This document shows, piece after piece, positions 1 to 64,000 of a stretch of 64,000 nucleotides of DNA. A program made the translations under genes and the position numbers. This DNA is from Deltaproteobacteria bacterium (GTDB lineage Bacteria; SAR324; NAC60-12). The notes beneath the pieces were generated by a model. It was given only the letters and a program-made list of their open reading frames with translations. It made no database searches and was not told the origin of the DNA. The stretch covers positions 21,445 through 85,444 of the forward strand of contig JAYOTF010000010.1 in NCBI GenBank assembly GCA_038150265.1. Direction: 5' to 3'. Position 1 is the stretch's first letter. The number at the start of each line of letters is the position of its first letter.

Positions 1-976
1 CGTCTGCCTGAATGCCCTTGTGCAGGAGTGCGGCAAGGTGAAGCTCTTCAAACAGGTTGACGTTGTTGTTGCTCGCGTGCCCATCGGTGCCCAGCGCCAC
101 AGTGACCCCTTTCGCCAGTAACTGCGGGATGGGGGCCACCCCATTGGCCAGCTTGAGGTTGCTGGTGGGATTGTGCAGCACCTTGACCTGGTACTCGGCC
201 AGCAGGCTCTGATCCGCCTCATCAACATGAACACAGTGGGCGGCAGCCGTCGGACGCTCCAGCACGCCGAGGTCCGCCAGGTACTGCACCGGCGTTTTTC
301 CATGGGCGCCCCGGGAGTTTGCCACCTCCTCCCGGCTTTCTGAGACATGAATGTGCAGGCCGATGTTCCGACGCTGTGCCTCCTGAGCCGCTTCCTTGAG
401 GTACCCGGCGCTGCAGAGGTAGGGGGAATGAGGGCCCAGCTGTACGGTGAGGCGGCCTCCCGCCTTTCCATGCCAGGTGTCGTGCAGGTGGGTCGCTTCC
501 TTGAAGAGGAAGGCCCCCAGCTCAGGATTCGGATCCAGCAGACCTCCGCAGAGGCAGGCTCGGATTCCGGACTCTTCCACCCCCCGAGCCACCTGGTCCA
601 TGAAGAAGTACATGTCGAGGAAGCTCGTCACCCCCGCCTGCAGCAACTCGAGCACGCCCAAACGGGTGCCCGCGTACACGTGCTCGGCGGAAAGGTGATC
701 CTCCATCGGCTTGATGCGCTCCATCAGCCAGGGCCAGAAGGGCAGGTCGTCTGCATAATTCCGGAACAGCGCCATCGGGATGTGCGTGTGGGCGTTGACC
801 AGTCCAGGCAGCACAAGGTGGTCGGTGCCGTCCACAGTTTCATCAGGCACAAAGCCATCGGGGACGGTGCCCACTCCCACCAGGCGATCGCCTGCCATCG
901 CAAGGGGGGCCGCAGGGTAAACCGTGTCGGTCGGGTCAACCGTCAGGAGGGTCGCATTTTCAATGAGCCGGTTCAT
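1..976 (-). CDS. Amidohydrolase, MTA/SAH deaminase (MtaD)-like; runs off the window edge
   Basis: Manual minus-strand translation from ATG at 976: MNRLIENATLLTVD...LPGLVNAHTHIPMALFRNYADDL (HxH metal motif) and ALGTDGHASNNNVNLFEE. Missing from the ORF track because it is truncated. Confidence 0.85.
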   Translation of the reverse strand, partial: MNRLIENATLLTVDPTDTVYPAAPLAMAGDRLVGVGTVPDGFVPDETVDGTDHLVLPGLVNAHTHIPMALFRNYADDLPFWPWLMERIKPMEDHLSAEHVYAGTRLGVLELLQAGVTSFLDMYFFMDQVARGVEESGIRACLCGGLLDPNPELGAFLFKEATHLHDTWHGKAGGRLTVQLGPHSPYLCSAGYLKEAAQEAQRRNIGLHIHVSESREEVANSRGAHGKTPVQYLADLGVLERPTAAAHCVHVDEADQSLLAEYQVKVLHNPTSNLKLANGVAPIPQLLAKGVTVALGTDGHASNNNVNLFEELHLAALLHKGIQAD

Positions 977-1121
977 CGCAGATTTTCACACACAAGGGGC
1001 CCTTCCGGAGAAGGAGAAGCAGTCACCAGGAATGCAGGGCATCTTTCCTGAGAAAGGGCATCAATTCAAGAGCTTTCCCGGACACGGCCCGTTTTTTCCA
1101 CGACTGGGCGGGTTCTCACCC

Positions 1122-1150
1122 TTGCAAGTTCCCAGGGCCTCCCTTACAGT
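1122..1150 (+). promoter_or_regulatory. Putative sigma70 promoter of gcvT
   Basis: TTGCAA-N17-TACAGT ending 30 nt before the gcvT ATG; GGAG RBS at 1171. Confidence 0.5.
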
Positions 1151-1179
1151 TGCTCGCTGTTTCACTTATTGGAGATTCT

Positions 1180-2277
1180 ATGGCGGAGCTTAAGAAAACC
1201 CCGTTTCATGCGATGCATCTGGAGCACGGGGCGATGATGGTGGACTTTGGGGGCTGGCACATGCCCGTGCGCTACAGTGGCGACAAGAAGGAGCACCAGG
1301 CGGTCCGAGAAGCCGTTGGGCTCTTTGATGTCAGCCACATGGGGGAAATTGCAATCCGGGGCAAACAGGCCCTTGCGCTCCTTCAGTACCTGACCTGCAA
1401 CGACGTTGCGCGCCTGGACCCGGGGAAGATCCACTACAACGTCCTGATGAGCCCCCAGGGCGGATTTCTTGACGACGTCCTGATCTACCATCGGGGCGAC
1501 CGGGACTACCTGGTGGTGGTCAATGCGGCCAACCGCGAGAAGGACTTTGCCTGGATCCGGGAGCAGAACGAACGCTTCAGTGCCGAAATCGCAGATGAGA
1601 GCGATGACTGGTGTCAGCTGGCGATTCAGGGGCCCAAGGCGGTTGACGTGCTGGAAGCCCTCACGGCCCTGCCGGTCCGGGACATGCGTTACTACCGTTT
1701 TGCCGAAGGCGAGGTCTGTGACGTGCCCATGATCGTCAGCCGGACCGGTTACACGGCTTCTGACGGGTTTGAGATCTACTTTGCCACGGAGCATGCCGAA
1801 GCCGTCTGGAAGCACGTCATGGACGCCGGAGCCCCGCATGGCCTGATTCCCTGTGGACTTGGCGCGCGCGACAGCCTCCGGATCGAGGGCGCCATGCACC
1901 TCTATGGCAACGAAATGAACGAAGACACCACGGTCCTTGAAGCCGGACTCAAGTGGGTGGTCAAGCTCGACAAGGGCAAGTTCATTGGCAAGGACCGCCT
2001 GGAAGAGCAGCAGCAAGACGGTGTGCCCAAGCGGTTGGTCGGCTTTGAAATGGTCGAGTTTGGCATTCCCCGGCACGGCTACCCCGTCTGGCACGGCGAC
2101 ACACAGGTGGGAGAGGTCACCAGCGGCATCCTCTCCCCGACCCTCAACAAGGCGGTTGGCCTGACCTACGTCCCGGCCTCGCTGGATGCTCCCGGAACCC
2201 TGCTGGAGGTCGAAATTCGCAAAAAACGCATCCCGGCTCGGATTGTCCCGACGCCGTTTTACCGTGTGAAACGCTGA
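1180..2277 (+). CDS. gcvT: Glycine cleavage system aminomethyltransferase T
   Basis: LKKTPFH, MVDFGGWHMPVRY, GLFDVSHMGEI, SRTGYT, GLGARDSLRIE motifs; GGAG RBS before ATG 1180. Confidence 0.95.
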   Translation: MAELKKTPFHAMHLEHGAMMVDFGGWHMPVRYSGDKKEHQAVREAVGLFDVSHMGEIAIRGKQALALLQYLTCNDVARLDPGKIHYNVLMSPQGGFLDDVLIYHRGDRDYLVVVNAANREKDFAWIREQNERFSAEIADESDDWCQLAIQGPKAVDVLEALTALPVRDMRYYRFAEGEVCDVPMIVSRTGYTASDGFEIYFATEHAEAVWKHVMDAGAPHGLIPCGLGARDSLRIEGAMHLYGNEMNEDTTVLEAGLKWVVKLDKGKFIGKDRLEEQQQDGVPKRLVGFEMVEFGIPRHGYPVWHGDTQVGEVTSGILSPTLNKAVGLTYVPASLDAPGTLLEVEIRKKRIPARIVPTPFYRVKR

Positions 2278-2425: not shown

Positions 2426-2812
2426 ATGAGCCAGGTGCCAGACGACCTGTTGTACACAAAAGAGCACGAATGGATCCGCATCGAAGGATCCAAGGCGTAC
2501 ATCGGCATTACCGAGTATGCGCAGAAGTCTCTGGGTGACATTGTGTACGTCGAAATGCCGAACATTGATGATGAATTCGAGTCTGGAGAAGAATTCGGAA
2601 CCATTGAGTCGGTCAAAGCGGTCTCTCCCCTCTACCTGCCGGTGGGTGGACGGGTGATCGACTTCAATCAGGAGCTCAAGGACCGCCCCGAGTTGGTGAA
2701 TGAAGACTGCTACGATGAGGGCTGGCTGATCCGGATCAACGTCCGGGGAGAAGAGGGACAAGAGGACCTCCTCTCAGCAGACGAGTACGAGGAATTCCTC
2801 AAAGAATCCTGA
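2426..2812 (+). CDS. gcvH: Glycine cleavage system H protein
   Basis: YTKEHEW, GITEYAQKSLGDIVYVE and lipoyl-lysine motif IESVKA. Confidence 0.95.
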   Translation: MSQVPDDLLYTKEHEWIRIEGSKAYIGITEYAQKSLGDIVYVEMPNIDDEFESGEEFGTIESVKAVSPLYLPVGGRVIDFNQELKDRPELVNEDCYDEGWLIRINVRGEEGQEDLLSADEYEEFLKES

Positions 2813-2829: not shown

Positions 2830-4380
2830 ATGGCTTCATCACCGCGGAACGTGCTCTTCATCACGGCAGATCAGTGGCGAGGAGACACGCTCGGATGTGT
2901 CGGACATCCGGTTGTGCAGACCCCGCACCTCGACCAGCTGGCCCAGGAAGGGGTGCTCTTCCGCAACCACTGGACCCAGACCGCTCCCTGCAGTCCTGCC
3001 CGGGCGTCTCTCTACACCTCCCTCTACCTGATGAACCACCGGGTTGCCAACAACGGCACCCCACTGGACCGACGGCTGACCAACTTTGCGCTGGAGGCCC
3101 GCAAGCAGGGCTACGACCCCACGCTCTTTGGCTACACCGACATGTCGGCAGACCCCCGGGAGCACGACCGGAACGACCCCAGGCTGAAAACCTACGAGGG
3201 CGTCCTTCCGGGCATGAGCGTCGGAGTCTCCCTGACCGAGAGCGAGAAGCCCTGGCTCGCCTGGCTCAAGACCCTGGGCTACGAAGGCCTGAACGCCGAA
3301 TCCGTTTACCGGCCTCTGCAATCAGCGCCACCCGGAGCAGGGGTCACGGCTCCGCCCGCCCGCTACCCCAGGGAACACAGCAACACGGCCTTTCTCTGTG
3401 GCGAGCTGCTGAAGTGGCTCAGCGTCCGGGAAGAGGAACCGTGGCTGGCGCACCTGTCGCTGCTGCGGCCGCATCCTCCATGGATTGCTCCGGAGCCTTA
3501 CAGCTCGCAGTACGACCCTGCTGACGTTCCGCTCCCGGCCCGAGGTCCGTCGGCTGCCCAGGAAGGCGAACAGCACTTGCTGCTGAAGACGCTTCATGAG
3601 ATCATCCCCATGAGCGCCTTTCACCGGGAAGGACAGGGCCCTGCCGCCGAGGCTTCCGAACAGGACGTCCGGCAGGCCCGAGCCACCTACTACGGGTTGA
3701 TCAGCGAAGTGGATGCCCAACTCGGGAAGCTCTTTGCCTACCTCAAGGAGTCCGGACAGTGGGACCGCACCCTCGTGATCTTTACCACCGATCATGGGGA
3801 GATGCTGGGAGACCACTACCTCTTTGGCAAGCAGGGCTACTTCGACGGCGCGGCTCACATTCCGTTGATCATTCATGATCCGGATCATCCGGAAACCTTC
3901 GGCACCACCGTCGAGGCCTTCACGGAGACCATTGACACCACTCCCACCCTGCTGGAGTGGATCGGGGCCACCCCGCCCCAGCAGTTTGATGGACTCTCGC
4001 TGATGCCCTTCCTCAGGGGCCAGGTTCCGGAACGCTGGCGAGATGCGGTGCACTTCGAGTTCGACTTCCGGGAAATCGGCTCCCTGCAGCCGATGATCCT
4101 CGAACGCTTTGGGCTCTACCCCGACCAGTGCACACTCTGTGTTCTGCGAGATGAACACTTCAAGTATGTCCACTTCACGGCGCTGCCTCCGCTGCTCTTT
4201 GACCTGAAGGCCGACCCTCAGGAACTGAACAACCTGGCGGAGCATCCGGATTACCAGGCCACAGTCCTGAAGTACGCCCAAAGGATGCTGTCGTGGACGT
4301 TCAACCACCGGGATCGCACTCTTGTCAACATCAGCTACGAATCCGGAACCCCCCTCTCTTGGGAAGGACCTCGGTTCTGA
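2830..4380 (+). CDS. Alkaline phosphatase/sulfatase superfamily enzyme, phosphonate monoester hydrolase-like
   Basis: NVLFITADQWRGD, formylglycine motif CSPARASLYT, LYLMNHRV..NGTPLD, RPHPP, TDHGEMLGDH, KYVHFTALPPLLFDL. Confidence 0.8.
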   Translation: MASSPRNVLFITADQWRGDTLGCVGHPVVQTPHLDQLAQEGVLFRNHWTQTAPCSPARASLYTSLYLMNHRVANNGTPLDRRLTNFALEARKQGYDPTLFGYTDMSADPREHDRNDPRLKTYEGVLPGMSVGVSLTESEKPWLAWLKTLGYEGLNAESVYRPLQSAPPGAGVTAPPARYPREHSNTAFLCGELLKWLSVREEEPWLAHLSLLRPHPPWIAPEPYSSQYDPADVPLPARGPSAAQEGEQHLLLKTLHEIIPMSAFHREGQGPAAEASEQDVRQARATYYGLISEVDAQLGKLFAYLKESGQWDRTLVIFTTDHGEMLGDHYLFGKQGYFDGAAHIPLIIHDPDHPETFGTTVEAFTETIDTTPTLLEWIGATPPQQFDGLSLMPFLRGQVPERWRDAVHFEFDFREIGSLQPMILERFGLYPDQCTLCVLRDEHFKYVHFTALPPLLFDLKADPQELNNLAEHPDYQATVLKYAQRMLSWTFNHRDRTLVNISYESGTPLSWEGPRF

Positions 4381-5666: not shown

Positions 5667-5704
5667 CGTTTCCGGAACTCAAATAAGAGTTTTATCTCTT
5701 AAAT

Positions 5705-44375: not shown

Positions 44376-44376
44376 G

Positions 44377-49992: not shown

Positions 49993-50149
49993 GAGCCGTC
50001 TTCACAGGACCCTCGCAATGAAGGGCAGCGTGTTTCAGGTGAGGGCCCTGGCCGTCTTCAGGGGTGTTCATCGGAGGCGTTCCTGATAGGGTATTGAGGT
50101 GAGTCTTTTTGGAGACCCCTTCCCCTCATCCCCGATCAGGACGTTTAAG

Positions 50150-50815: not shown

Positions 50816-51339
50816 CGGGACGGCTCATGAAGCCAACGGGCGTGTTCCGGCGCCCGTTTGGTTCGCGACCACTCTTCCAGCATCTCCCACTTCACCTCAT
50901 CCAGCCGCGTGTTCATCTCCGGAGTATCGGTGTTGCACGCCAGCTCCAGCCGTAACCCGTTCGGGTCAAAGAAGTAAATCGACTGAAAGAGCTTGTGGTC
51001 CGTTGGGCCCACCACCTCAATGCCGTCGGCCTCCAAACGTGCCTTGACGCGCAGCAGCGTCTCAACCGAATCCACCTGCATGGCAAAGTGCTGAACCCAC
51101 TTTGGAGTGTTCGGATCCCGCCCCATCGGAGGCTGGGTGGGCAGCTCAAAGAAGGCCAGGATGTTGCCGTCTCCAGCCTTGAGGAAGATGTGCATGTACG
51201 GGTCCGGCTCCTTGGTCGAGGGGACCTCATTCTCGGCAATGGCCAGGACGAACTCCATGTCGAGGTACTTCTGGTACCACTCGACCGTCTCTTTGGCATC
51301 GTGGCACCGGTACGCCACATGATGAATCTTTTGGATCAT
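50812..51339 (-). CDS. VOC/glyoxalase family protein
   Basis: [36 protein letters not shown]. Confidence 0.85.
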
Positions 51340-51377
51340 CGGTTTCTCCCACAAAATCGTTGCACAGGCTTCGGCTG

Positions 51378-51596
51378 TCACAGCCCCCGACGGGCCACCT
51401 GCAAGGCCTCCCGCAGCACCTCCAGGTCCCCAATGTGATTGGAGAGCAGCAGCACCAGCCGCGCGTTCAGAGCCGTGCTCTGCTCCTCGCTCAAGCCCTG
51501 ATGCGCGTCAATCAGAGCCTCATAAAAATTATCCCCCGGCAGGTAGGCCGAGGTTTGGGAGGATTCGTGGTAATGCGGTTCCGTAATCAGAGGCAT
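51378..51596 (-). CDS. DUF2783-like protein
   Basis: DNFYEALIDAHQGLSEEQS..LNARLVLLLSNHIGD. Confidence 0.85.
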   Translation of the reverse strand: MPLITEPHYHESSQTSAYLPGDNFYEALIDAHQGLSEEQSTALNARLVLLLSNHIGDLEVLREALQVARRGL

Positions 51597-51605
51597 GGTG
51601 ATTCT

Positions 51606-53258: not shown

Positions 53259-53261
53259 GGC

Positions 53262-54215
53262 TCAGTCTTGCAAGGAAGCCCACATTTGCTGGTCACGCTC
53301 AGCCGTCCAGATGCGCGGGTGATCCAGTCCGGACGCCTCATCGTAGGCCCGGGCCACATTGAACGGCAGGCAGTGCTCATAGATGGCAAAGCTGGAGTAC
53401 TTGGGGTCACAGACCTCCCGGCACATCGCCATTGCGTCCTTGAGGGAGCGTCCCTGCGCGGCCGCGGCCGCCACCGGAGCGTAGGTGTCGTTGAGGAAGT
53501 TTTGGGTGAGGTGAATCGCCTCTTCCACGGCATCCGGAGTCGTCAGCGCATCGCCACGTCCCGGCACAAGTGCCTTGGGCTGGAACGCCCGGAGCTTGCC
53601 AATGGTGAGGGGCCAGTCTGTGAAGTGCGCGTCGCCACAGTAACACGCGGAGTGGAACTCGACGGTGTCTCCGGAAAACATCACCCCGGCATCGGGCACC
53701 CACACCACCGTGTCGCCTGCCGTGTGAGCACGCCCCAGGTGCATGATCTCCACCCGACGCTTGCCGAGGTACACCGTCATCTTGTTGCTGAAGGTCAGGG
53801 TGGGCCAGGTCAGTCCCGGAATCGACTCTGCCGCCTGAAAGAGCCGGGGGAAGCGTCCATACTCGCTGTCCCAGTCTTCCTGCCCGCGTTCCACAATGAG
53901 CGAACGAGTGGCTGCCGAGGCAATGATCTGCTGAGGCTGGTACGCGGCAGCACCCAGCACCCGGACCGCATGGTAGTGACTGAGGACCACATACTGGACC
54001 GGCTTGTCGGTGACTTCCCGGATGTACTGCAGCACCTGCTGAGCCATTGCCGGTGTGGCCTGTGTGTCGATCACCATCACCGAGTCCTCCCCAACGATCA
54101 CGCCGGTGTTCGGGTCACCTTCCGCGGTGAAGGCATACAGCCCCTCTCCCAGCTGCGTAAAGCTGATGTTCTTGGCTTCAGTGTCTCCAACAGAGGCAAA
54201 GGCTTTGGAAGTCAT
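53262..54215 (-). CDS. Metallo-beta-lactamase-fold hydrolase
   Basis: TAEGDPN, variant metal motif SHYHAVRVLG, HTAGD, ACYCGD, PGRG. Confidence 0.85.
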   Translation of the reverse strand: MTSKAFASVGDTEAKNISFTQLGEGLYAFTAEGDPNTGVIVGEDSVMVIDTQATPAMAQQVLQYIREVTDKPVQYVVLSHYHAVRVLGAAAYQPQQIIASAATRSLIVERGQEDWDSEYGRFPRLFQAAESIPGLTWPTLTFSNKMTVYLGKRRVEIMHLGRAHTAGDTVVWVPDAGVMFSGDTVEFHSACYCGDAHFTDWPLTIGKLRAFQPKALVPGRGDALTTPDAVEEAIHLTQNFLNDTYAPVAAAAAQGRSLKDAMAMCREVCDPKYSSFAIYEHCLPFNVARAYDEASGLDHPRIWTAERDQQMWASLQD

Positions 54216-54259
54216 GCAGGTACTCCGGTAAGGGTGGACTCATGAGGTGCGGGATCGCG

Positions 54260-55273
54260 TCAGCGGGGCTGGACCTCTTGTTCAATGACGCCAAAAATAC
54301 TGGCTCCGGACGTGTTCCGCATCTCAATGCGCACACGGTCTCCGAAGCTCATGAACGGGGTTTTCACGGCCCCATGAAGAATTGTTTCAACCATCCGGAC
54401 CTCCGCCAAACACGAATACCCCACGCCTCCGTCTCGAATGGGACGTCCGGGGCCTCCGTCGGCATCTCGGTTGGAGACGGTTCCCGAGCCAATCAGGGTT
54501 CCTGCTCCAAGGGCACGGGTCCGAGCGGCATGAGCCACCAGCTGCGGAAAGCTGAAGGTCATGTCCACCCCGGCGTTGGCACGCCCAAACGGCTCGTTGT
54601 TGTAGGTCACTTCCAGCGGGAGGTGCACCTTGCCACCGTCCCAGGCGTCTCCCAGCTCATCTGGGGTCACAAACACAGGAGCAAAGGCAGAGGAGGGCTT
54701 GGACTGGAAGAAGCCAAACCCCTTGCCCAGCTCATTGGGAATGAGGTTCCGGAGGGAGACGTCGTTGACCAGCCCCACCAGCAGGATCCGGCCCTGAGCC
54801 TCTTCTGGCGTCACGCCTGCCGGAACGTCGTGTGTCACCACAACCACCTCGGCTTCAAAGTCGATCCCCCATTCCGGATCGGCCATCGTGATCGGCTCAC
54901 ACGGCCCCAGAAAGGTATCGGAGCCGCCCTGGTACATCAGCGGGTCATGCCAGAAGCTCTCGGGCATCTCGGCCCCACGCGCCTTGCGGACCAACTCCAC
55001 GTGGTTGACGTAGGCAGAGCCATCGGCCCACTGGTACGCCCGGGGAAGCGGAGCCAGGCACTCCTGCGGACGGAACTCCAGCGCCTGTGCCAGCTGTCCC
55101 ACGTTGAGGCGTTCCGAGACTTCCCGGAGGCGGCGAGAGACGTGGTCCCACTCGTCCAGCGCCTGCTGGAGCGTGGTTGCCAGCTCCGGAACCGTCACGC
55201 AGCGGCTGAGGTCTCGGGACACAACAGCAAGTTGGCCGTCTCGGCTTCCGTTCGGGAGAGTGGCAAGCTTCAT
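54260..55273 (-). CDS. Fumarylacetoacetate hydrolase family protein
   Basis: MKLATL, PLPRAYQWADGSAYVNH, DFEAE, NDVSLR, GSGTVSN. Confidence 0.9.
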   Translation of the reverse strand: MKLATLPNGSRDGQLAVVSRDLSRCVTVPELATTLQQALDEWDHVSRRLREVSERLNVGQLAQALEFRPQECLAPLPRAYQWADGSAYVNHVELVRKARGAEMPESFWHDPLMYQGGSDTFLGPCEPITMADPEWGIDFEAEVVVVTHDVPAGVTPEEAQGRILLVGLVNDVSLRNLIPNELGKGFGFFQSKPSSAFAPVFVTPDELGDAWDGGKVHLPLEVTYNNEPFGRANAGVDMTFSFPQLVAHAARTRALGAGTLIGSGTVSNRDADGGPGRPIRDGGVGYSCLAEVRMVETILHGAVKTPFMSFGDRVRIEMRNTSGASIFGVIEQEVQPR

Positions 55274-55348
55274 GGGAGGTTCCGTACCGGAATCAGGTTG
55301 CAGGCGGAGGGGTAAGGGGAAAGGTGGCAGAGCGGTTCAGGTGCCGTG

Positions 55349-55377
55349 ATTCTCGTTTTCCCCCAACCGGTTGTCAA
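55349..55377 (-). promoter_or_regulatory. Putative sigma70 promoter of the FAH cluster
   Basis: Minus-strand TTGACA-N17-GAGAAT. Confidence 0.5.
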
Positions 55378-55422
55378 GAAAAATCCGGGAGGTCTGCCCC
55401 CCGGCCGAGTGCACTCCCTGGC

Positions 55423-56718
55423 TCACTCCTTGAGGAGGAATCCCTGGCTGGCCGCAATCATCCAATCCGGATCCTGGCTGCCACACAGCTCTCGGATGGA
55501 GTGCATGGAAAGCTGCGCCAGGCCGACATCAACCGTGGGCACCCCCAGCTCAGCAGACACCATTGGTCCAATCGTGCTGCCGCAGGCGAGGTCCGTCCGG
55601 TTGACAAACTTCTGCACCGGAATGTGCCGTTGCTGGCAGATCTGCTCAAAGAGGGCCTCGGTGGCGCCATCGGTGGCATAGCGTCCCTGAGCATTGATCT
55701 TGATCACCGGGCCAGCGTTCATCTGCGGAAAGTGCTGGGCGTCATGCCGCTCCGGGTAGTTGGGGTGGAGGGCGTGAGCCATGTCGGCAGAAAGCAGCAC
55801 CGAGCGCGCCAGCGCCGTTTCCTCGGCTTGAGCCAGTCCGGAATCCTGAGCCAGGCGCCGGACCATGGATTTGAGAAATGACGACGCGGCGCCCTTGACC
55901 GTTTCGCTCCCGATTTCCTCATGGTCGAAGCACGCGAGGACCCGGGTGTGGGGCACCGCTTGCTGCCGGTCTCGCAGCAGCGCCTCCAGGCCACAGAAGC
56001 ACGAACAAAGGTTGTCCAGCCGGGGAGCCGACAGAAACTCATCCTGCTCTCCCAGCAGGCTGCCCGGCTGCGTGTCAAACAGGCTCAGCTCATGGCTCAG
56101 AATGGATTCTCGCCGGAGCCCCAGCTCCTGAGCCAGGAAGGCTTCCAGGGACTCGGTTTCTGCCAGCCGCCCCTGCAGGCCAAAAACGGGAGGCAGGTGG
56201 TTCTGGGCGTTGAGCACCAGCCCCTTTTCGTTGACCTCCCGGTTGAGGTGAATTGCCAGAAGCGGAATGCGGAGCAGCGGCCGATCCACCCGGATCAGCG
56301 TGGACTGCACGGCTCCGGAGTCGTCTCGGTAGTGAACGCGTCCTGCCAGCGCGAGGTCCCGATCGGCCCAGCTGGAAAGCAACACCCCGCCATACACCTC
56401 CACTCCGAGCTGACGGTAGCCGTGCTGACGAAGGTCCGGAAGGGGCTTCAGGCGCAGGTTCGGACTGTCGGTGTGTGCGCCAAAGATCCGGAAGCCGTGC
56501 TGCGCGATGGCGCCCGTTCCCTGAATCCAGGCAATCAGGCTGGAGCCTCCGCGGATGACAAAGTAGGCCCGCCCAGGCTGGAGGTGCCAGGCGTCGGTTT
56601 CGTTCAGCTCGCGGAATCCGGAGTCGGCAAGGCGTGACCGCAGGCTTTCCACCGCATGAAACGGTGTGGGAGCGGAGTCAATGAAGCGGAGGAGGCTGTG
56701 GCTGGTTTCAGCAGGCAT
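55423..56718 (-). CDS. M18 aspartyl aminopeptidase
   Basis: PTPFHAV, AHTDSP, RLDNL, DHEEIGS, DMAHA.HPNY, CGSTIGP, MHSIRE. Confidence 0.93.
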   Translation of the reverse strand: MPAETSHSLLRFIDSAPTPFHAVESLRSRLADSGFRELNETDAWHLQPGRAYFVIRGGSSLIAWIQGTGAIAQHGFRIFGAHTDSPNLRLKPLPDLRQHGYRQLGVEVYGGVLLSSWADRDLALAGRVHYRDDSGAVQSTLIRVDRPLLRIPLLAIHLNREVNEKGLVLNAQNHLPPVFGLQGRLAETESLEAFLAQELGLRRESILSHELSLFDTQPGSLLGEQDEFLSAPRLDNLCSCFCGLEALLRDRQQAVPHTRVLACFDHEEIGSETVKGAASSFLKSMVRRLAQDSGLAQAEETALARSVLLSADMAHALHPNYPERHDAQHFPQMNAGPVIKINAQGRYATDGATEALFEQICQQRHIPVQKFVNRTDLACGSTIGPMVSAELGVPTVDVGLAQLSMHSIRELCGSQDPDWMIAASQGFLLKE

Positions 56719-56741
56719 GGCAGATGGTTCGGTTCAGAAGA

Positions 56742-57371
56742 TTACTTTCCGGACCTCAGTTGCCCCTCTTCGCCAGAAAGCAGGCGTGCAATGTTGGAGC
56801 GGTGCTTGTAGATGAGCAGTCCCGACAGGGCACTGAGGAGGAGGAGTCGAGAGGTGGAAGAGTCGTCTCCCACCAACCCGGGCAGGGTCGCCGTCCAGAG
56901 TGGCAGGGTTGCCAGCATGGTCAAGGCGGCCAGGCTGGAGATGCGTTTCCAGAGAAACATCCCCACCCACACCGCGGCCGCGGCGAGTCCGGTGGGCAGG
57001 TGGAGCGCAGCCAGCACGCCAAACAGCGTCGAGACGCCCTTGCCGCCCTTGCCCTTGAGAAAGAGGGAGAACACGTGGCCACACACCGCCGTTACCGCAA
57101 CCAGCGACAGCCAGAAGTCCCGGTCGGTCCATTCGAGTTCCGGGCTCAGCCACGCATCGGCCAGCAGCACCGCAACCGTTCCCTTGGCAAAATCGAGGAG
57201 GAAGGTCAGGATGCCGGGAGTCTTGCCACCAACGCGCATGACGTTGGTCATGCCAATGTTGCCGCTGCCCTGACTGCGGATGTCGATGCCAAGGAGGTAG
57301 CGGCTGATGAGCAGGCCGAAGGGAATGCTGCCCAGGAAGAAGGCCAGGACCAGCAGAAAGAGTTCTGTCAT
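56742..57371 (-). CDS. plsY: Glycerol-3-phosphate acyltransferase PlsY
   Basis: GSIPFG, GSGNIGMTNVMR, GGKGVST, HRSNIARL. Confidence 0.95.
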   Translation of the reverse strand: MTELFLLVLAFFLGSIPFGLLISRYLLGIDIRSQGSGNIGMTNVMRVGGKTPGILTFLLDFAKGTVAVLLADAWLSPELEWTDRDFWLSLVAVTAVCGHVFSLFLKGKGGKGVSTLFGVLAALHLPTGLAAAAVWVGMFLWKRISSLAALTMLATLPLWTATLPGLVGDDSSTSRLLLLSALSGLLIYKHRSNIARLLSGEEGQLRSGK

Positions 57372-57375
57372 GAGG

Positions 57376-58284
57376 TCACCATGCAGACTTCTTGCGAGAC
57401 TTTGCGGCTTCGATGCCCTGCTCCCGGATGAGCTGCAGCAGCTCCCGGTCGTCTCGGTGCTTGATCAGCGTTTGGGCCCCGCGGAGCTGCTCAATGTCCT
57501 GAAGGTCCCGGACTTCCTGCTGCACGAGGTAGGCGATCCAGTCCAGGATTTCACTGGTAGAGGGGTTGCGGGTGAGGCCCAGGTCGCGGAGCTGGTAGAA
57601 GATCTGCAGCGCTGCATCCACCAGCTGAGCCTGAGCCTGCGGGTGGTGCATCCGGATGATGTCGCGCATCCGGTCTGGAGGAGGAAACTCAATGTACGCG
57701 TAGACGCACCGGCGGACAAACGGCGCCGGGAGGTCCTGCTCATGATTCGAGGTAATCACAATAACCGGCATCTCTCCGGGACCGCAGGCGATGACCTGTC
57801 CGGTTTCCGGAACCACAATCCGCCGTTCCGAAAGCAGAAACAGCAGGTTGTTGGGAAGCTCCCGGGGCGCCTTGTCGATTTCATCCAGCAGCAGCACCGA
57901 CCCGGGGGTGGAGAAGGCGCGGGCCAGCGGTCCGAGGTGGACGTACTGCTCCAGCTCATCGACCCGGCGTCCACCGGTTTCGATGTGCATGTCAATGCCT
58001 GCCTGCTTCATCTGGGCATTGGCAATGGCGGCCTGTGCGTCCATCAGGCGCTGCACCTCGTCAAAGCGGGAGACGAGCTGCGAGACCTTGCTTTCGGAGG
58101 TGATGGGGACTTCGAAGAGGGGAGCGTTGGTTGCGGCAGCAAACTCCTGGGCCAGCTTGGTCTTGCCGGTCCCCGGCTCGCCTTCCAGCAGAAGAGGCTT
58201 TTCCAGCATCCGGGCGATGTGGAAGGCCTCTTCCAGTTTGGGGTCCAGGAGGTAGGTGGAGGTTCCGCTGAAGCTGGAGGACAT
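57376..58284 (-). CDS. MoxR-family AAA+ ATPase
   Basis: GEPGTGKT, LLDEIDKA, TSNHEQDLPAPFVRRC, PSTSE.LDW. Confidence 0.88.
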   Translation of the reverse strand: MSSSFSGTSTYLLDPKLEEAFHIARMLEKPLLLEGEPGTGKTKLAQEFAAATNAPLFEVPITSESKVSQLVSRFDEVQRLMDAQAAIANAQMKQAGIDMHIETGGRRVDELEQYVHLGPLARAFSTPGSVLLLDEIDKAPRELPNNLLFLLSERRIVVPETGQVIACGPGEMPVIVITSNHEQDLPAPFVRRCVYAYIEFPPPDRMRDIIRMHHPQAQAQLVDAALQIFYQLRDLGLTRNPSTSEILDWIAYLVQQEVRDLQDIEQLRGAQTLIKHRDDRELLQLIREQGIEAAKSRKKSAW

Positions 58285-59036
58285 CAGAGCTTGCTTTGAA
58301 GTTCAGAAACGAGTTCCTGTGGGCTCATCTCCGGCATGTCGTCCCAGTCCATCAGGTTGAAGAGGTGCTGGCGGAGCTTCCCGCGGGAGAGGCCTCGCTT
58401 CTGCCACTCTTCAAAGACTTCTTCCTGATCAGCTGAGACGGGCCCACCGGACAGATCTTTACGCAGGAGGAATTTTACTGCGCTGTCCGGGTGTTGTCGA
58501 AGAAAATTTTCATGGGACTCGTCTGTGATGCGCCCCTTGCCGTTGACGACATCCGACTCATCGGCGTCCAGTGCATCCATGGAGAAGCTGGATTCGCCGT
58601 AGTCCTCCAGTTGTGGAGAGAGGTCCACATCCGGGGTCAGCTCAAAGCCCAGCTCTGCGGCCTCATCAATCGGCTCGGCCGGTTGCTGCATGTTCGGCGC
58701 CGGCATGGTGCCCTGCGGACCGCCCATGGGTCCACCCATCGGACCTCCAAACGGCGAGGCGCTCAAGCGGCGCTGCAGCTGCTGCGGGCTGGGGATGAGG
58801 ATCACAAACGCAATCAGCAAGATGGCAACGGCAAAGACTCCGGAGTAGATCAGCCCATTGACGTAGAGGTCATACTTCCCCTTGTCGTAGTAATAGGTCG
58901 TGACGTTCATGCCCTGGTAGGTCATGAAACTGACCTGCGACATGCCGTTGTAGCAGTAATAGGCCCCAAAAATGGTGGCCCCCAGGCTTCCCAACACCGC
59001 GACCACGTAGGCGTTGAGGTATTGAATCGGTGGCAT
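58284..59036 (-). CDS. Hypothetical membrane protein (two TM, GGPM linker, acidic domain)
   Basis: Two hydrophobic segments; GGPMGGPMGGPQG; stop overlaps the MoxR start. Confidence 0.75.
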   Translation of the reverse strand: MPPIQYLNAYVVAVLGSLGATIFGAYYCYNGMSQVSFMTYQGMNVTTYYYDKGKYDLYVNGLIYSGVFAVAILLIAFVILIPSPQQLQRRLSASPFGGPMGGPMGGPQGTMPAPNMQQPAEPIDEAAELGFELTPDVDLSPQLEDYGESSFSMDALDADESDVVNGKGRITDESHENFLRQHPDSAVKFLLRKDLSGGPVSADQEEVFEEWQKRGLSRGKLRQHLFNLMDWDDMPEMSPQELVSELQSKL

Positions 59037-59255
59037 ACTCCCTCATTCCTTGAAGGCGGTTGTGTCATGAGCTGGCACCAGCTGGCGTCAAGCCCCGGTG
59101 GCCCACTCATGCGTTCTTTCCCGGCGACTGAACGTGTTCAGCGGCCGAGAACCTCATGAAAATCAGATGGTTTGTGCAAGAACACACCATCACGCGTGCA
59201 GGCGGCAACCGCCGGTTCCTGTACGCGGTGGCGTCCGTCTCGGAGACGGATCCGG

Positions 59256-59678
59256 TTAATTCGTCGTAAAGAGGTTGCCGTACTGCTCGCGGTAGACCGA
59301 AACCAGCGCGGTTCCTTCCTCGTCGGGCATGTTCCGTCGGATCACCTGCACCAGCTGGCGGTTCGCATCCTCCAGGTTGCGCATGGCGTTGTAATGCGAA
59401 ACACGACGGTCCCAGCACTTGGCGACCCCACGGGCGGTCAGGACCGAGTCCACGCTCGCGTAGTACGCCTGATACAGCCGATGGTCGTTCCGCTCGTCGT
59501 AGAAGACGGCCAACCCCGTCTTTGCCTCATTGTGAAGCAGGAAGGCGTGGTCCATGACCCGATCGGCACAAGGCGTCCGAGCCACCGCCGCATCGGTGTT
59601 CAGGTTGGGAAGGGCCGAGCAGCTGCTCAACAGCACACTGAACGCCCCAAGCAAGAGGGAAAGCGTTGGGAATTTCAT
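59256..59678 (-). CDS. Hypothetical lipoprotein
   Basis: Lipobox LSSC; followed by hairpin TCCGTCT-CGG-AGACGGA at 59234-59250. Confidence 0.7.
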   Translation of the reverse strand: MKFPTLSLLLGAFSVLLSSCSALPNLNTDAAVARTPCADRVMDHAFLLHNEAKTGLAVFYDERNDHRLYQAYYASVDSVLTARGVAKCWDRRVSHYNAMRNLEDANRQLVQVIRRNMPDEEGTALVSVYREQYGNLFTTN

Positions 59679-59832
59679 AGCCGAAACATCGAAAATTGGG
59701 CAATCCCGGAATTTGACCTTTCCGGACTATCTTCTGTTTCGGCAGATGAGAGAAAAACTTTAGGAAAAAATGAGGGAGGGGGCCGACCGGCCCCTGCCAG
59801 GAAGCAGGGAGCCGAAGACGGACAGAGGGGGG

Positions 59833-61125
59833 TTACTTCTTGTTGTTTTCCAAACGGTTCAGAGCCGTGAGGATCTTCAGCTGCAGCCGGTTGTAGCGCG
59901 GATTGACCGTGACCGCCGCATCAATGGACTTCTTGGCCAGCTTGAGGATCTCCTTGGCGCCTTCCTTGGTTGCCCGGATCAGCTCACGGTTCTGGAAGGC
60001 AAAGTACGCCACTTGAGCAAACTCCGCCAGCACCGGAAGGTCGCTGCGGTGCGGCTCGCTGGTGGAAGTCCGGCGCAGGGCCTTGCGGTACGCGACAATG
60101 GCTTTGTTGAAGGTGGGGCCAATCGAGTTCCGGACCGAGTTGTCTCCGCACTGCAGGCGCAGCATCATCAGCCGGACGGCCTGCATGTGGATCCGGGCTT
60201 CCATGAGGAACGGCACCGGGATCTTGCTCTCCACCCCCTGCAGCTTGCCCGCGAGCTTGAGTCCAAGGGAGTGCAGGAAGGGAATGTAGCGGGCCACATC
60301 GAGGACGGCATAGCTCTTCCGGAGCAGGAGCTTGCGCTTGTTGTAGGTCTGACCCACCTCCGAATTTCCGAGGAACTGCATCACGGCGCCGTGACGCGAG
60401 GAAAGCTGGTCCAGCTCATCCAGGTTGATCGGCATGGACATCGACGCCCGGATGTCCTCATCGAGGCTCTTGGTCATTTCCTGCATGCTCAGCCCCATCT
60501 TGATCTCCTGGATCATCATCGCGTCTTCCTCACTCTCTGGCACCTTGTCGGCACTGATGAGGGACTCGGTCGAGATGCGGTCCACATTGACATTCTTGAG
60601 CTGGGCGGAGCGGACGAGCAGCAGCTGCTTCTTGTGCGTTTGGATGACGCGGCTGAGGTAGATTCGGTACGCCTGCCCGGCCAGCTGCATGGCCGCTGGG
60701 GTGATGTCTCCCAGGTAAATGGGCAACGCCGCCTGGACCATCAGGTTCCGGTACACCTCCAGCTCGTGCTCCTTGCGGATCTGCAGGAACCCCCGGATGA
60801 GCTGAACCCGCGCATTGGTCAGGGTGGGGTCCTTGCTCAGCTCCGCCACTTCCTTGTTGAGCTGGGGCGCCACCAGATCGCCCAGAATGGCCCCATTGAT
60901 GTGTCCGCCACTTCCGTCCTTGCCGTCTCCTCCCGTGATGGACTTGCGCATCTTGAGGAGAAAGGTGGACTTGCTCTGCTTCTTGATGTCCTCGGTGGCC
61001 AGAATGATCTGACGCGTGACCCCTTTGAAGTCGAAGTTGACTGGTCCGGAAGGGCCTTCTCCTTTCCCGATGACCCGTCCGCGGGCAGCGGCCGCTTGTT
61101 GTGCAATGAGTTCGTCCTTGTTCAT
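59833..61125 (-). CDS. Hypothetical all-helical protein, 430 aa
   Basis: Long ORF with genome-like codon usage filling the gap; no family recognised. Confidence 0.75.
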   Translation of the reverse strand: MNKDELIAQQAAAARGRVIGKGEGPSGPVNFDFKGVTRQIILATEDIKKQSKSTFLLKMRKSITGGDGKDGSGGHINGAILGDLVAPQLNKEVAELSKDPTLTNARVQLIRGFLQIRKEHELEVYRNLMVQAALPIYLGDITPAAMQLAGQAYRIYLSRVIQTHKKQLLLVRSAQLKNVNVDRISTESLISADKVPESEEDAMMIQEIKMGLSMQEMTKSLDEDIRASMSMPINLDELDQLSSRHGAVMQFLGNSEVGQTYNKRKLLLRKSYAVLDVARYIPFLHSLGLKLAGKLQGVESKIPVPFLMEARIHMQAVRLMMLRLQCGDNSVRNSIGPTFNKAIVAYRKALRRTSTSEPHRSDLPVLAEFAQVAYFAFQNRELIRATKEGAKEILKLAKKSIDAAVTVNPRYNRLQLKILTALNRLENNKK

Positions 61126-61305
61126 TTCAGCTTTTCAGTGCCTTCAAGTGTGAGCGAGCAGTGGCGCCGGCAGAAAATGCCTCTCATTAGGTACCAGATC
61201 ATGTGAAAAAACGGAACAGGATTCCCTGTACGGAGGCCGAAAGGCGGCGGAATCTTCCTGAACAGGCGGCCTTGGGGTCCAAGTAGAAGGCACGCACCAG
61301 AATTG

Positions 61306-61321
61306 CGCAAGTTTTACGCCA
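61306..61321 (-). promoter_or_regulatory. Putative sigma54 promoter upstream of the 430-aa ORF
   Basis: Minus-strand TGGCGTAAAACTTGCG gives GG-N10-GC. Confidence 0.45.
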
Positions 61322-61322
61322 T

Positions 61323-61904
61323 TCACCCTTCCGGAGGCGGGGCAGCGGTGGGGTTCGGATCGGGAGCCCAGTCTTCCCGCTGCTGATCCATCCACTCTCC
61401 AACAAAGAGCTGCTGGGCTTCCGGCATGGCGTAACGCGAATCCAGAATGAACCGATCCAGAAAGGGAACCACCTGAAGCAGGAAGTGATCGCGCCAGCGT
61501 TCCGCTGCAGCCAAGCGGGCGTCATAGCGGAGCGCTCCCACACCAAGCTGACGATTGAACGAGAAGTGCGCCATCTGGTACCCCGGCGCAATCACGGTCA
61601 GCTGCAGCTGAGACGCCCGGAGGTCAAAGCCGGTCTGAAAGAAGCCGTCCGCATCAGGAAAGACCAGGCGGGCTTGAGGAATGAAGCGAGCGGGCTCGCC
61701 GTCAAACTGGATCGGGGAGCGGTGGAACTCCTGAACCACCACAAAGCTGGCATGCACCAGGGGCTCGCCCTGTGCCTCTGCAATCGTTCCCGAAACCGTC
61801 TCCGTCGTCCAGCCCGGCGCCACCTGAACCGACGGCGAGAAGCAGCCGCTCAGCAGCAGAAACAGGACCAGCAGGAGCGTTCCGGCGCAAGGATGTCTTG
61901 TCAT
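61323..61904 (-). CDS. Hypothetical lipoprotein
   Basis: Lipobox LSGC; beta-sandwich-like body (TVSGTI...DADGFF...VIAPGY). Confidence 0.7.
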   Translation of the reverse strand: MTRHPCAGTLLLVLFLLLSGCFSPSVQVAPGWTTETVSGTIAEAQGEPLVHASFVVVQEFHRSPIQFDGEPARFIPQARLVFPDADGFFQTGFDLRASQLQLTVIAPGYQMAHFSFNRQLGVGALRYDARLAAAERWRDHFLLQVVPFLDRFILDSRYAMPEAQQLFVGEWMDQQREDWAPDPNPTAAPPPEG

Positions 61905-61979
61905 CAACCAGAGATCGTGCTAATTGTTGGTCCTTTATTTTGAGCTGATGTTTCAAAATCGCAACCTGAACGAGCCCCC

Positions 61980-62129
61980 ATGATCCCGGAAGAAGTCTTT
62001 TACCTGTTCATTTTCCCCTGGCTGCTGCTGATCGCCTCCATCCCAGGAAGCGTGATCTCCTACCTTGTGGCCGGGATTGTGGCCCAGCTGCTCAACTACC
62101 TGCCTGAAAAGAAGGCTCCTGAAGCCTGA
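61980..62129 (+). CDS. Small membrane protein, 49 aa (not in the ORF track)
   Basis: Manual translation MIPEEVFYLFIFPWLLLIASIPGSVISYLVAGIVAQLLNYLPEKKAPEA*. Confidence 0.6.
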   Translation: MIPEEVFYLFIFPWLLLIASIPGSVISYLVAGIVAQLLNYLPEKKAPEA

Positions 62130-62161
62130 TTGCGCTGCATCCTGTTGACTCGGGAGGACTC

Positions 62162-62560
62162 GTGAACCGTTATCAACTCATGATCAACGAGTTCCTCCAC
62201 AACAGTGGCTATGTGGAAAAGGGACGCGTCGGGGAGCAGGAGTGGTGGCTGGTCAATGGCTCCATCAAGGTTCAGATCTTCCTGCACCCTCGCAAGGGAG
62301 ACACCGACCTGATTGTTGCCGCCAACCTTCTCCGTTACGCCCGTTCCTTCCCCGAATTTGAAAACTACCTCCTCAAACTCAACGGCAGCTTCCGCCTCCG
62401 GGGGGTCTCCCTGGGATTCCGGAACCATCACCTTGTCGCCAGCTACATCCGGCCGGTAGAGGGATTGGACCCGGAAGAGCTGGAGTGGATCATCACCAGC
62501 GTGGCATTGGTGGCCGATGAGTTGGATGACTTCCTGGTCAACCGCTTTCAACTCGAGTAA
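62162..62560 (+). CDS. YbjN/CesT-like chaperone-fold protein
   Basis: GGAGG RBS; W.LVNGS..V.I, YLLKLN, LDPEEL...I..VALVADELDD. Confidence 0.7.
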   Translation: MNRYQLMINEFLHNSGYVEKGRVGEQEWWLVNGSIKVQIFLHPRKGDTDLIVAANLLRYARSFPEFENYLLKLNGSFRLRGVSLGFRNHHLVASYIRPVEGLDPEELEWIITSVALVADELDDFLVNRFQLE

Positions 62561-63495
62561 TGTCTCATCCTGCACCCCCTTCCTTTCCCGCTCAAGTGAT
62601 TCAGGGGAGCCTGATCACCTTCCTCATTGTCCTGAACACGCTCTGGTGGGGAGGCCTGATCCTGCTGTTTTCGCCCCTGAAGCTGTACCGGAATGACGCC
62701 TGGCGACACCGCCTGGCTGGGATGTACAGCTCGTGGGCACACAACTGGAGTTGGGACAACAGCTTCCTGCTGCGCAAGGCCCGCTTTCCGGAAGTCACCG
62801 TCGATGCGCCCGAAGGCCTCAGCAAGGAACGCTCGTACCTGGTCATGAGCAACCACATCTCCATGGCGGACATTCCGGTGGTCGAGTATGCCTGCATCAA
62901 CCGCATTCCCTTCCGGAAGATCTTCATCAAGCATGAGCTGATCTGGCTCCCGATTGTCGGAGCGGTTTGCTGGGTGCTCGATTTTCCGTTCATGAAGCGC
63001 TACTCCAAGGAGCAGCTCCGGAAGAACCCGTCTCTGCAAGGCAAGGATCTGGAGACGACCCGGAAGAGCTGTGAGAAGCTGAAGGGCTACCCCAGTGCCA
63101 TCTTGAGTTATGTGGAGGGAACGCGCTTCAGCGAACAGAAGCGGGAGAAGACCCACTCGCCGTATCAGCACCTCCTGAAGCCCAAGGTCGGAGGCGTCCT
63201 GACCGTGCTGGATTCCCTGGGGGATCACCTGGACGGAGTGCTGGACCTGACGCTGGTGTATCCAGACAACCCCACTCCGCCGACCTTCTGGCAGTTGGTC
63301 AGTGGGCAGGTACCTCGGGTCGTCGTCCGCATGCGCCTGTTGCCGGTTCCCTTTCAGCAAGACGGCGAGCAGGAGCTGACCGACACCGAGCGCGTGCGCC
63401 ACATCCGGAACTGGATCGTCGGCATCTGGCGGGAAAAGGACGCCTTCATCACCAGCCAGATTACGCCTTCGCCAGAAGCGCTGGAGACCTCATGA
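62560..63495 (+). CDS. Acyltransferase, PlsC/YihG-like
   Basis: SNHISMADI, FIKHELIWLP, DFPFMKRYS, EGTRF, LLKPKVGG. Confidence 0.9.
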   Translation: MSHPAPPSFPAQVIQGSLITFLIVLNTLWWGGLILLFSPLKLYRNDAWRHRLAGMYSSWAHNWSWDNSFLLRKARFPEVTVDAPEGLSKERSYLVMSNHISMADIPVVEYACINRIPFRKIFIKHELIWLPIVGAVCWVLDFPFMKRYSKEQLRKNPSLQGKDLETTRKSCEKLKGYPSAILSYVEGTRFSEQKREKTHSPYQHLLKPKVGGVLTVLDSLGDHLDGVLDLTLVYPDNPTPPTFWQLVSGQVPRVVVRMRLLPVPFQQDGEQELTDTERVRHIRNWIVGIWREKDAFITSQITPSPEALETS

Positions 63496-63971
63496 TCTTC
63501 TTCCAGCCCTATGACTCTCCACTCGGACGGATGATCCTCCAAGAAGAGGATGGGTTTTTGGTACGGATCGACTTCGACAGCGACGCGCTTCAGACTCCGG
63601 AAGGCGCTGCGAGGCAAGAGTCCCTGGTGCTACGAGAAGCCATCCGCCAGCTCACCGCTTACTTCAACGGCACCCGCACCCGCTTCCAGCTTCCCCTCAA
63701 TCCGCAGGGAACGCCTTTTCAGCAACGGGCCTGGAAGGCGCTTCAGGAGATCCCATACGGAGAAACACGCAGTTACGAGCAGCAGGCCATCCGGGTGGGC
63801 GGAAAGAACTACACCCGAGCCGTCGGCGGTGCCAATCACCGCAATCCCCTCTCCATTGTCATCCCCTGCCACCGGGTGATTGGAAAAAATGGCCAGCTCA
63901 CGGGCTTCGGAGGCGGCCTCGACCGCAAGCAGGCCCTCCTGAACCTTGAACAGACCGGGACTCTGAGCTAG
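63492..63971 (+). CDS. ogt: Methylated-DNA-protein-cysteine methyltransferase
   Basis: GTPFQ, IPYGET.SY, RAVGGAN, IPCHRV. Confidence 0.95.
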   Translation: MIFFQPYDSPLGRMILQEEDGFLVRIDFDSDALQTPEGAARQESLVLREAIRQLTAYFNGTRTRFQLPLNPQGTPFQQRAWKALQEIPYGETRSYEQQAIRVGGKNYTRAVGGANHRNPLSIVIPCHRVIGKNGQLTGFGGGLDRKQALLNLEQTGTLS

Positions 63972-64000
63972 CACTTCCCCTCTTTACCCACCTCTCTGAG

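Follow-up and report, generated by a model that had tools for sequence, protein, structure and literature searches.

The question raised by this stretch of 64,000 nucleotides (hereafter the window; positions 21,445 to 85,444 of contig JAYOTF010000010.1, or G000:C10:21445-85444) is why the six-base palindrome TCCGGA recurs in it so far above chance. The genome to which the window belongs, G000, was available as an assembly of 3,393,712 bases in 87 contigs (61.2% GC, 97.8% complete). G001 belongs to the same genus and G002 is a sister species, and the families and genera of the phylum are designated by f and g numbers. An earlier note, made from the letters of the window, had likened the word to the highly iterated palindrome HIP1 of cyanobacteria and had considered methylation-coupled repair, a nucleoid protein or an uptake signal as its cause. 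According to our analysis, TCCGGA is indeed HIP-like in its behavior, with a helical register in addition, and a methylation-coupled mechanism is unsupported. The reading that we favor, with a probability of roughly 0.45, is that TCCGGA is the core of the binding site of a putative multimeric DNA-binding protein.

Abundance of TCCGGA in the window and in the genome

TCCGGA was found 208 times in the window (3.25 per kb), whereas 100 dinucleotide-preserving shuffles of the same DNA gave a mean of 24.48 copies (standard deviation 5.15, largest 42) and none of them reached 208. The GC content was even along the window, between 0.58 and 0.64. The hand counts given in the earlier note proved exact (19 copies in 1-6000, 22 in 11000-14730 and 13 in 51600-53260), as did its single copy of the anagram ACCGGT in 1-6000, located at 1744; ACCGGT occurred 12 times in the whole window. 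Called genes contained 196 of the 208 sites (53 read as TCC-GGA, 51 as xTC-CGG-Axx and 92 as xxT-CCG-GAx), the other 12 being intergenic. The examples put forward for the three codon phases agreed with independent gene calls, the two intergenic examples fell outside these genes, and the three copies reported within 25 bp were located exactly:

1004..1009: intergenic TCCGGA, context CTTCCGGAGA
2730..2735, plus strand: TCCGGA in phase xTC-CGG-Axx (Ile-Arg-Ile), in the called open reading frame 2426-2812
3489..3494, plus strand: TCCGGA in phase xxT-CCG-GAx (x-Pro-Glu/Asp), in gene 2830-4380
3751..3756, plus strand: TCCGGA in phase 0, TCC-GGA (Ser-Gly), in gene 2830-4380
5671..5676: intergenic TCCGGA in the favored extended form TTCCGGAA
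53193..53217: three copies starting at 53193, 53202 and 53212 (spacings of 9 and 10 bp), inside the minus-strand gene 51606-53258

Genome-wide, 9,711 sites were counted, i.e., one per 349 bp, which makes TCCGGA the commonest of the 4,096 hexamers in G000. Its observed/expected ratio (O/E) was 8.7 on base composition, and 7.57, 3.95, 2.39 and 1.22 under Markov models of orders 1 to 4. The last value is low because a model of order 4 takes the signal itself into its expectation, 54% of the TCCGG pentamers of G000 falling within TCCGGA. Among the 64 palindromic hexamers, the runner-up was CTGCAG with an O/E of 3.15, and the remaining NCCGGN hexamers, with values of 0.66-2.26, did not share the enrichment.

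Codon usage was controlled with a set of 2,709 genes, called by a purpose-made codon-likelihood scheme and covering 86.6% of G000. The density of sites was 2.93 per kb in coding and 2.39 per kb in non-coding DNA, the latter corresponding to an O/E of 7.6 on non-coding composition. When synonymous codons were shuffled within genes (30 shuffles), 2,076.5 ± 35.5 sites were expected and 8,613 were observed (z about 184). The resulting O/E of 4.15 was far from unity and was made up of 3.9, 3.2 and 5.1 in the three codon phases, while control words ranged from 0.37 to 1.43, save those overlapping TCCGGA. The enrichment in three phases, together with that of non-coding DNA, bears out the earlier statement that a single codon pair is unlikely to explain the word. 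TCCGGA occupied 8,611 of the 20,895 places that the encoded proteins permit (41%). This is illustrated by the Ser-Gly places, 34% of which were occupied vs. 8% expected from independent codon usage, the share of TCC rising from 0.29 to 0.49 before Gly and that of GGA from 0.24 to 0.47 after Ser. A signal at the DNA level can thus claim about 40% of the eligible synonymous sites, which bears on codon-usage models, binning and annotation of such genomes. A by-product of codon, dipeptide or base composition, the explanation to which the maximal-order O/E of 1.22 might point, has next to no chance of being correct, since it is refuted by the synonymous shuffle with enrichment in every phase and in non-coding DNA, by the raised shares of both TCC and GGA, by an enrichment that holds across genomes from 41% GC (G012, O/E 10.6) to 61% GC, and by the dependence of the order-4 model on pentamers that the motif itself supplies.

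The information carried by the flanks did not exceed 0.08 bits per position, and TCCGGA is therefore not part of a longer dispersed repeat. A weak preference, mirror-symmetric and identical for the 1,039 sites of non-coding and the 8,567 of coding DNA, reached three positions outward from the hexamer (G at -3, C at -2, T or C at -1); the extended form TTCCGGAA was 26.9-fold over-represented in G000. Such symmetry is to be expected if a symmetric reader covers about 12 bp. Along the genome, 5-kb windows were near-Poisson in content (mean 14.5, variance 16.5, minimum 3 sites). The first 150 nucleotides of genes were poorer in sites (2.1 vs. 3.05 per kb), in part because the called starts are the longest possible. 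Gap lengths were near-exponential (coefficient of variation 0.98), with 30 gaps over 2 kb vs. 28 expected, and short gaps were deficient, 423 of at most 30 bp being observed vs. 807 expected. The one-mismatch neighbors of TCCGGA were not depleted: 16 of 18 exceeded an O/E of 0.97, both exceptions being words with TA. In its short GC-rich palindromic form, its near-uninformative flanks, its presence in three phases and in non-coding DNA and its genome-wide occurrence, the word thus behaves as the comparison with HIP1 had suggested.

Helical phasing and lineage-specific registers

In the spectrum of distances (d) between pairs of sites in G000, the codon peak at 3.0 bp (power 29.7) was joined by one of like strength at 10.5 bp (power 25.2), which a fine scan placed at 10.50 bp. 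Maxima were found at d = 9, 18-20, 30-31, 41-42 and 51-52, and a trough at d = 11-17. The first of these maxima, which includes one spacing of the triplet at 53193..53217, was the strongest short-range spacing genome-wide (45 pairs). Phasing was strongest within about 110 bp and could be traced to roughly 300 bp, possibly 500. It was specific to the word: the power at 10.5 bp was at most 2.0 for seven other palindromic hexamers and for GGCC, TCC, GGA, TTCC and GGAA, and 8.1 for CCGG, whose occurrences include the motif. No co-phasing of A/T tracts with the sites was detected, the power of WW, AA and TT being at most 1.5.

Pairs of permissible sites gave the 3-bp peak only and none at 10.5 bp, whereas the top peak of the observed/expected co-occupancy ratio was located at 10.5 bp (24.4). 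When occupancy was permuted within gene and phase, none of 200 permutations matched the real power (967 vs. 113 ± 44). The phasing is therefore not an effect at the protein level, and the alpha-helix repeat of proteins was excluded as its source by these two controls. The co-occupancy ratio fell to 0.13-0.41 at d = 11-17 and rose to 1.4-1.7 at in-phase distances; neighbor effects are hence as large as the main effect.

The spread of the word was surveyed in 72 genomes of the phylum that were at least 80% complete, using the ratio of TCCGGA to the reversed control AGGCCT. This ratio varied from about 0.01 to 36. Within family f1, enrichment was found in g11 (4.8-32, 12 genomes), g19 (14-30, three genomes), g1 (3.9-5.9), g4 (3.0-8.4) and g6 (4.5-4.7), and a ratio of about 1 in g2 (six genomes), g5, g8 and g9. 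Family f2 ranged from 0.13 to 2.0. In family f7, genera g30-g32 reached 2.5-8.2 while g33 and g35-g38 remained at 0.01-0.14, and the highest ratio belonged to G053 of family f4 (357 TCCGGA vs. 10 control words, ratio 36). Under-representation, with ratios of 0.01-0.25, was observed in 15 of the 72 genomes. TCCGGA was nearly absent from G065 and G067-G071 (f7) and from G054, G055, G015, G017 and G020, as illustrated by counts of 15, 25 and 31 sites vs. about 1,400-1,700 control words (15 vs. 1,435 in G071). Such avoidance, up to about 100-fold, is far beyond that usual for restriction sites. Enriched, neutral and almost word-free genomes within one phylum constitute a ready set for phylogenetic profiling.

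Whole-genome pair counts at d = 41-43 and d = 46-48 were then compared between lineages. Each of these windows is 3 bp wide, and codon periodicity therefore cancels:

G000: 129 pairs at d = 41-43, 52 pairs at d = 46-48
G002: 67 pairs at d = 41-43, 39 pairs at d = 46-48
g11, 12 genomes: 465 pairs at d = 41-43, 155 pairs at d = 46-48
g4, three genomes: 57 pairs at d = 41-43, 22 pairs at d = 46-48
G001: 22 pairs at d = 41-43, 57 pairs at d = 46-48
g19, three genomes: 17 pairs at d = 41-43, 148 pairs at d = 46-48
Enriched genera of f7: 57 pairs at d = 41-43, 51 pairs at d = 46-48

The shorter spacing was favored in 12 of 12 g11 genomes and, in sum, in g4; the longer one was favored in all three g19 genomes, with counts of 0 vs. 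33 in G050. Two spacing registers are thus found in different genera, one favoring 41-43 bp (G000, G002, g11 and g4) and one favoring 46-48 bp (g19 and G001). A 464-kb sample of G002 had its period peak at 10.45 bp (nR² 10.8), and G049 of g19 (400 kb, 326 pairs) had a period of 10.1 bp with an offset of 7.4 (nR² 8.1), the best period of G000 by the same measure being 10.6 with an offset of 9.2. A sample of G001 (400 kb, 363 pairs) gave no clear peak near 10.5 bp, and that of G012 (156 kb, 38 pairs) held too few pairs for a spectrum. Flank preference varied as well. G001 carries as many TCCGGA sites as G000 and prefers CTCCGGAG flanks; at position -1, C was preferred in G001 (0.40) and T in the other four genomes sampled, T and C being equal in G002. 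These differences of register and flank taste between lineages argue against fixed DNA mechanics and against a per-site bias, and in favor of an evolving reader. They also mean that comparative genomics can seek a protein that co-varies with them. Among the mechanisms listed in the earlier note, the nucleoid protein gained from the word-specific helical phasing and the lineage-specific registers, and methylation-coupled repair gained nothing from the searches for methyltransferases and repair enzymes described below. An uptake signal does not predict helical phasing.

Site turnover, a putative reader and its rivals

The turnover of sites was followed between G000 and its sister species. The part of the window that entered this analysis, with 400 kb more, was the following:

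16400..63956: stretch collinear with contig C8 of G002, at about 81% identity

In total, 443 kb of G002 were aligned to G000, with 81.8% identity, 89% at the amino-acid level and 51% at four-fold third positions. TCCGGA was kept in G002 at 550 of 1,222 G000 sites (45%), compared with a median of 32% for 1,084 hexamers, among which it ranked 174. Site conservation in orthologs, a check proposed in the earlier note, was therefore above that of control words, albeit weakly. Among 2,159 places permissible in both genomes, 491 were occupied in both, 402 in G000 only and 252 in G002 only, so that the probability of occupation in G002 was 0.55 if the place was occupied in G000 and 0.20 if it was not. 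The corresponding site "memory" was 0.35, compared with 0.02-0.64 for the control states listed, and the value of 0.20 was far above the 0.01-0.10 of the alternative states listed. Given this fast gain and loss between sister species, single sites are replaceable and the abundance of the word is an equilibrium upheld by frequent gains.

How could such an equilibrium coexist with helical phasing? Copies in phase with the helix imply that a reader makes physical contact with sites in pairs. TCCGGA would form the central part of a symmetric binding site of about 12 bp, whose weak consensus is G-C-T/C TCCGGA A/G-G-C. A putative abundant protein may bind this site as a dimer and make cooperative contacts with neighboring sites on defined helix faces. 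The word would then be held, by selection rather than by molecular drive, at roughly 40% of the places allowed by synonymous codons or non-coding DNA. Rather than acting on single sites, this weak, collective pressure would act on their density and mutual spacing, and any one site would be gained and lost at about the synonymous rate.

Several observations weigh against this proposal. Retention between G000 and G002 was independent of the phase of the nearest neighbor (65/145 vs. 39/88), and the species-specific sites of the two genomes were not detectably phased together (257 pairs, p about 0.22); both comparisons have little power, and neither points directly to selection that preserves the register. 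Long gaps were not in short supply, the test for even spacing being negative. The enriched genomes of f7 had no consistent preference at the two spacings, single genomes pointing both ways; enrichment may therefore occur without that phasing, or with registers outside the two windows probed. No histone fold (PF00808) was found in G000, nor a CCGG nuclease of the Bse634I type (PF07832), the latter search being positive in no control genome and thus saying little. Besides, the proposal implies a small advantage per site, and the same equilibrium could result from molecular drive.

A more far-reaching and tentative version, which we regard as doubtful, is that TCCGGA serves as the docking word of a multimerising protein that coats the chromosome. 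The geometry of this coat would have evolved, with at least two registers: a period of about 10.5 bp and maxima around 41-43 bp in G000, G002, g11 and g4, and a period of about 10.1 bp and maxima around 46-48 bp in g19 and G001. The near-total avoidance of TCCGGA in sister lineages would be due to an antagonist that reads the same word, e.g., a nuclease. If so, the chromosome would carry a sequence-encoded "chromatin code" written mostly in synonymous codon positions.

Molecular drive without structural function is an unlikely alternative that nonetheless accounts for part of the data. Biased repair, gene conversion or uptake would turn near-cognate words into TCCGGA, the phasing being a side effect of the machinery. 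The dynamic equilibrium between G000 and G002, the only moderate conservation of the whole hexamer and the near-Poisson density everywhere are all in line with it. Flank "dialects" between species resemble those of uptake sequences, and a repair model of this type was proposed for HIP1 (Elhai, 2015; PMC4390886). However, one-mismatch neighbors, from which new copies would be drawn, were not depleted, and neither Vsr nor a C5 methyltransferase was found in G000. A process acting site by site predicts neither the 10.5-bp phasing, nor the exclusion at d = 11-17, nor two registers, and six bases are short for a self-recognition tag.

Methylation offers another explanation, in which an orphan methyltransferase marks TCCGGA and a SeqA- or MutH-like reader of the methylated or hemimethylated site needs GATC-like density and pairs on the same helix face. 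In Escherichia coli, GATC occurs about once per 240 bp, and SeqA needs pairs of hemimethylated GATC sites on one face of the helix. The density of TCCGGA in G000 is near the former value, and same-face pairing recalls the latter requirement. Alternate HIPs have also been tied to cognate methyltransferases, an enzyme for the word or its core being present whenever a HIP is abundant (Elhai, 2015; PMC4390886). Yet no match was found in the G000 assembly to PF00145 (C5 methyltransferase), PF03852 (Vsr), PF02976 (MutH) or PF02384 (N6_Mtase), the MutH profile being positive in E. coli used as control. Two frames did match N6_N4_Mtase (PF01555-type), both with an SPPY motif: MT1 on contig C45 and MT2 on C51.

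MT1 (G000:C45:2844-3617; L001:1441-2217) is a SPPY-type protein of 258 amino acids encoded directly downstream of a retron-type reverse transcriptase (L001:35-1444; NF038233, 200 bits). Among 21 genomes searched, full-length relatives were present in G000 and G001 only; MT1 and the reverse transcriptase being common to these two alone, they probably form a mobile defence island. Orthologs of MT2 (G000:C51:248-1384; L036), 41-93% identical, occurred in genomes of all three classes, enriched, neutral and strongly depleted (e.g., G017); among the same 21 genomes, MT2 was not found in enriched G011, and it also scored on RNA-methyltransferase-like models. The MT2 of G002 (C16, L147:451-2643) carries an N-terminal region of ~350 amino acids made of Arg/Asp/Glu-rich repeats (PRREDRPRYEDR...) and is followed by a TerB-like gene. 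The presence of MT1 or MT2 does not track enrichment across the 21 genomes, word specificity not being readable from sequence, and neither enzyme finds support as the cognate methyltransferase of TCCGGA. The retron context and narrow distribution of MT1, the presence of MT2 in genomes of every kind and the negative profile searches weaken the methylation-linked explanation, although MT2 orthologs could differ in specificity; we consider it improbable.

Finally, TCCGGA may itself be anisotropically flexible or bent; selection for phased copies would then give the chromosome its shape or compaction with no dedicated sequence-specific protein involved. Indeed, the period of 10.50 bp matches the helical repeat of B-DNA, and no A/T-tract phasing was seen that could carry curvature instead. 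Fixed physics would nevertheless not give the same hexamer different registers, periods and flank preferences between genera, and sub-words and related GC-rich palindromes were unphased, which makes an origin in DNA mechanics rather improbable too.

Mismatch repair and known iterated words

The MutL protein of G000, encoded outside the window (G000:C17:39705-41558; L037:184-2040), raised the further question of whether mismatch repair could nick the DNA at TCCGGA. The motif DQHA(X)2E(X)4E is described as the catalytic metal site of the MutL endonuclease (PMC2965676). In G000 it is replaced by DFQQTEQRLKAR, which aligned opposite DQHAAQERIKYE of Bacillus subtilis MutL (3GAB/3KDK); CPHGRP is absent, and the metal ligands of the endonuclease are hence lost. 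MutS is canonical, with its five domains only and no fused nuclease. No neighbor of mutL was conserved beyond the genus. According to the nick-site explanation, the lost endonuclease would have been replaced by a TCCGGA-directed nickase and the word enriched to GATC-like density. The eroded MutL, the canonical MutS and a MutH that was not found in G000 fit this scheme, as do the first 20 relatives: the motifs were dead in the five with the strongest enrichment and intact in all eight members of f2.

Wider sampling dissociated the two traits in both directions. Erosion, complete or partial, affected 20 of the 21 f1 MutL proteins examined, only that of G009 being nearly intact, and both motifs were kept in all f2, f3, f4, f5, f6 and f7 proteins examined, motif II not being recovered for G066. 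The DQHA-type and CPHGRP motifs were intact in all seven enriched f7 genomes tested (ratio 2.5-8.2) and in G053 (ratio 36). Conversely, G006, G010 and the genomes of g2 (ratio about 1) had an eroded MutL without enrichment, and neither a 109-kb portion of G003 nor a 200-kb portion of G010 contained another hyper-abundant word. The MutL tree places erosion as a trait of family f1, which therefore counts as about one event, and TCCGGA has no deficit of long gaps. The nick-site explanation is thus very improbable; the link between MutL and TCCGGA was rejected and the erosion of MutL stays as a separate observation.

A literature search, judged from titles and with supplements outside its scope, found no report of the genomic over-representation of TCCGGA, in agreement with the earlier note, which knew of no description of the motif. 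Among the papers listed as containing the word, one biological use was seen, in the DIF1 motif that Anabaena has in promoters of heterocyst genes. The closest likeness is to HIP1 (GCGATCGC) and the alternate HIPs as outlined in two accounts (PMC4390886; PMC5861425): both are GC-rich palindromes, hyper-abundant genome-wide with about one or more copies per gene, present in several coding frames and in non-coding DNA, conserved above typical words, and thought to be selected for their distribution and not as single sites. According to the same accounts, however, HIP1 is an octamer of cyanobacteria enriched 15- to 300-fold, whereas TCCGGA is a hexamer of another phylum enriched 8.7-fold; Xu et al. 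(2018; PMC5861425) describe a periodicity of 18-94 kb for HIP1, in contrast to the 10-10.6-bp helical repeat found here. Moreover, no cognate methyltransferase tracks TCCGGA, and related lineages avoid the word up to about 100-fold. The HIP1 core CGATCG was under-represented in G000 (O/E 0.40). Highly iterated palindromes, known mainly from cyanobacteria, have stayed unexplained for about 30 years, and a word of the same kind is met here in an unrelated, uncultured phylum.

The Dam/GATC system with SeqA and MutH shares with TCCGGA a palindrome every few hundred bp and, in G000, a MutL without endonuclease motif. It differs in that no word-specific Dam-type enzyme was identified and no MutH found in G000, and in that MutL erosion does not track TCCGGA; furthermore, GATC, as a 4-mer, is dense by chance, whereas TCCGGA needs about 9-fold enrichment. 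Uptake sequences of Pasteurellaceae (USS) and Neisseriaceae (DUS) are non-palindromic words of 9-12 bp. They resemble TCCGGA in their thousands of copies, even in coding and non-coding DNA, their dialects among relatives and their turnover equilibrium, but the information of TCCGGA sits in the palindromic 6-mer and hardly in its flanks, and to our knowledge no helical phasing between copies has been described for uptake sequences. A ten-base dinucleotide periodicity is tied to wrapping by archaeal and eukaryotic histones, and an A-tract periodicity of roughly 11 bp occurs in bacteria. TCCGGA shares with these patterns a repetition at the helical period over 100-300 bp, but here the periodicity resides in one specific hexamer and not in A/T dinucleotides, and the search for a histone-fold gene in G000 was negative. 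Lastly, TCCGGA is the word recognized by BspEI, AccIII and Kpn2I, and its avoidance in relatives such as G071 is what restriction pressure would give; in G000, by contrast, it is enriched 8.7-fold and no matching enzyme pair was identified.

Other words of G000 also departed from expectation. CTAG was scarce (574 sites, O/E 0.05), and palindromes containing TA were nearly absent (e.g., 15 sites for CATATG and 12 for ACTAGT). TACTAC/GTAGTA was 9.65-fold above its first-order Markov expectation, yet rare in absolute number.

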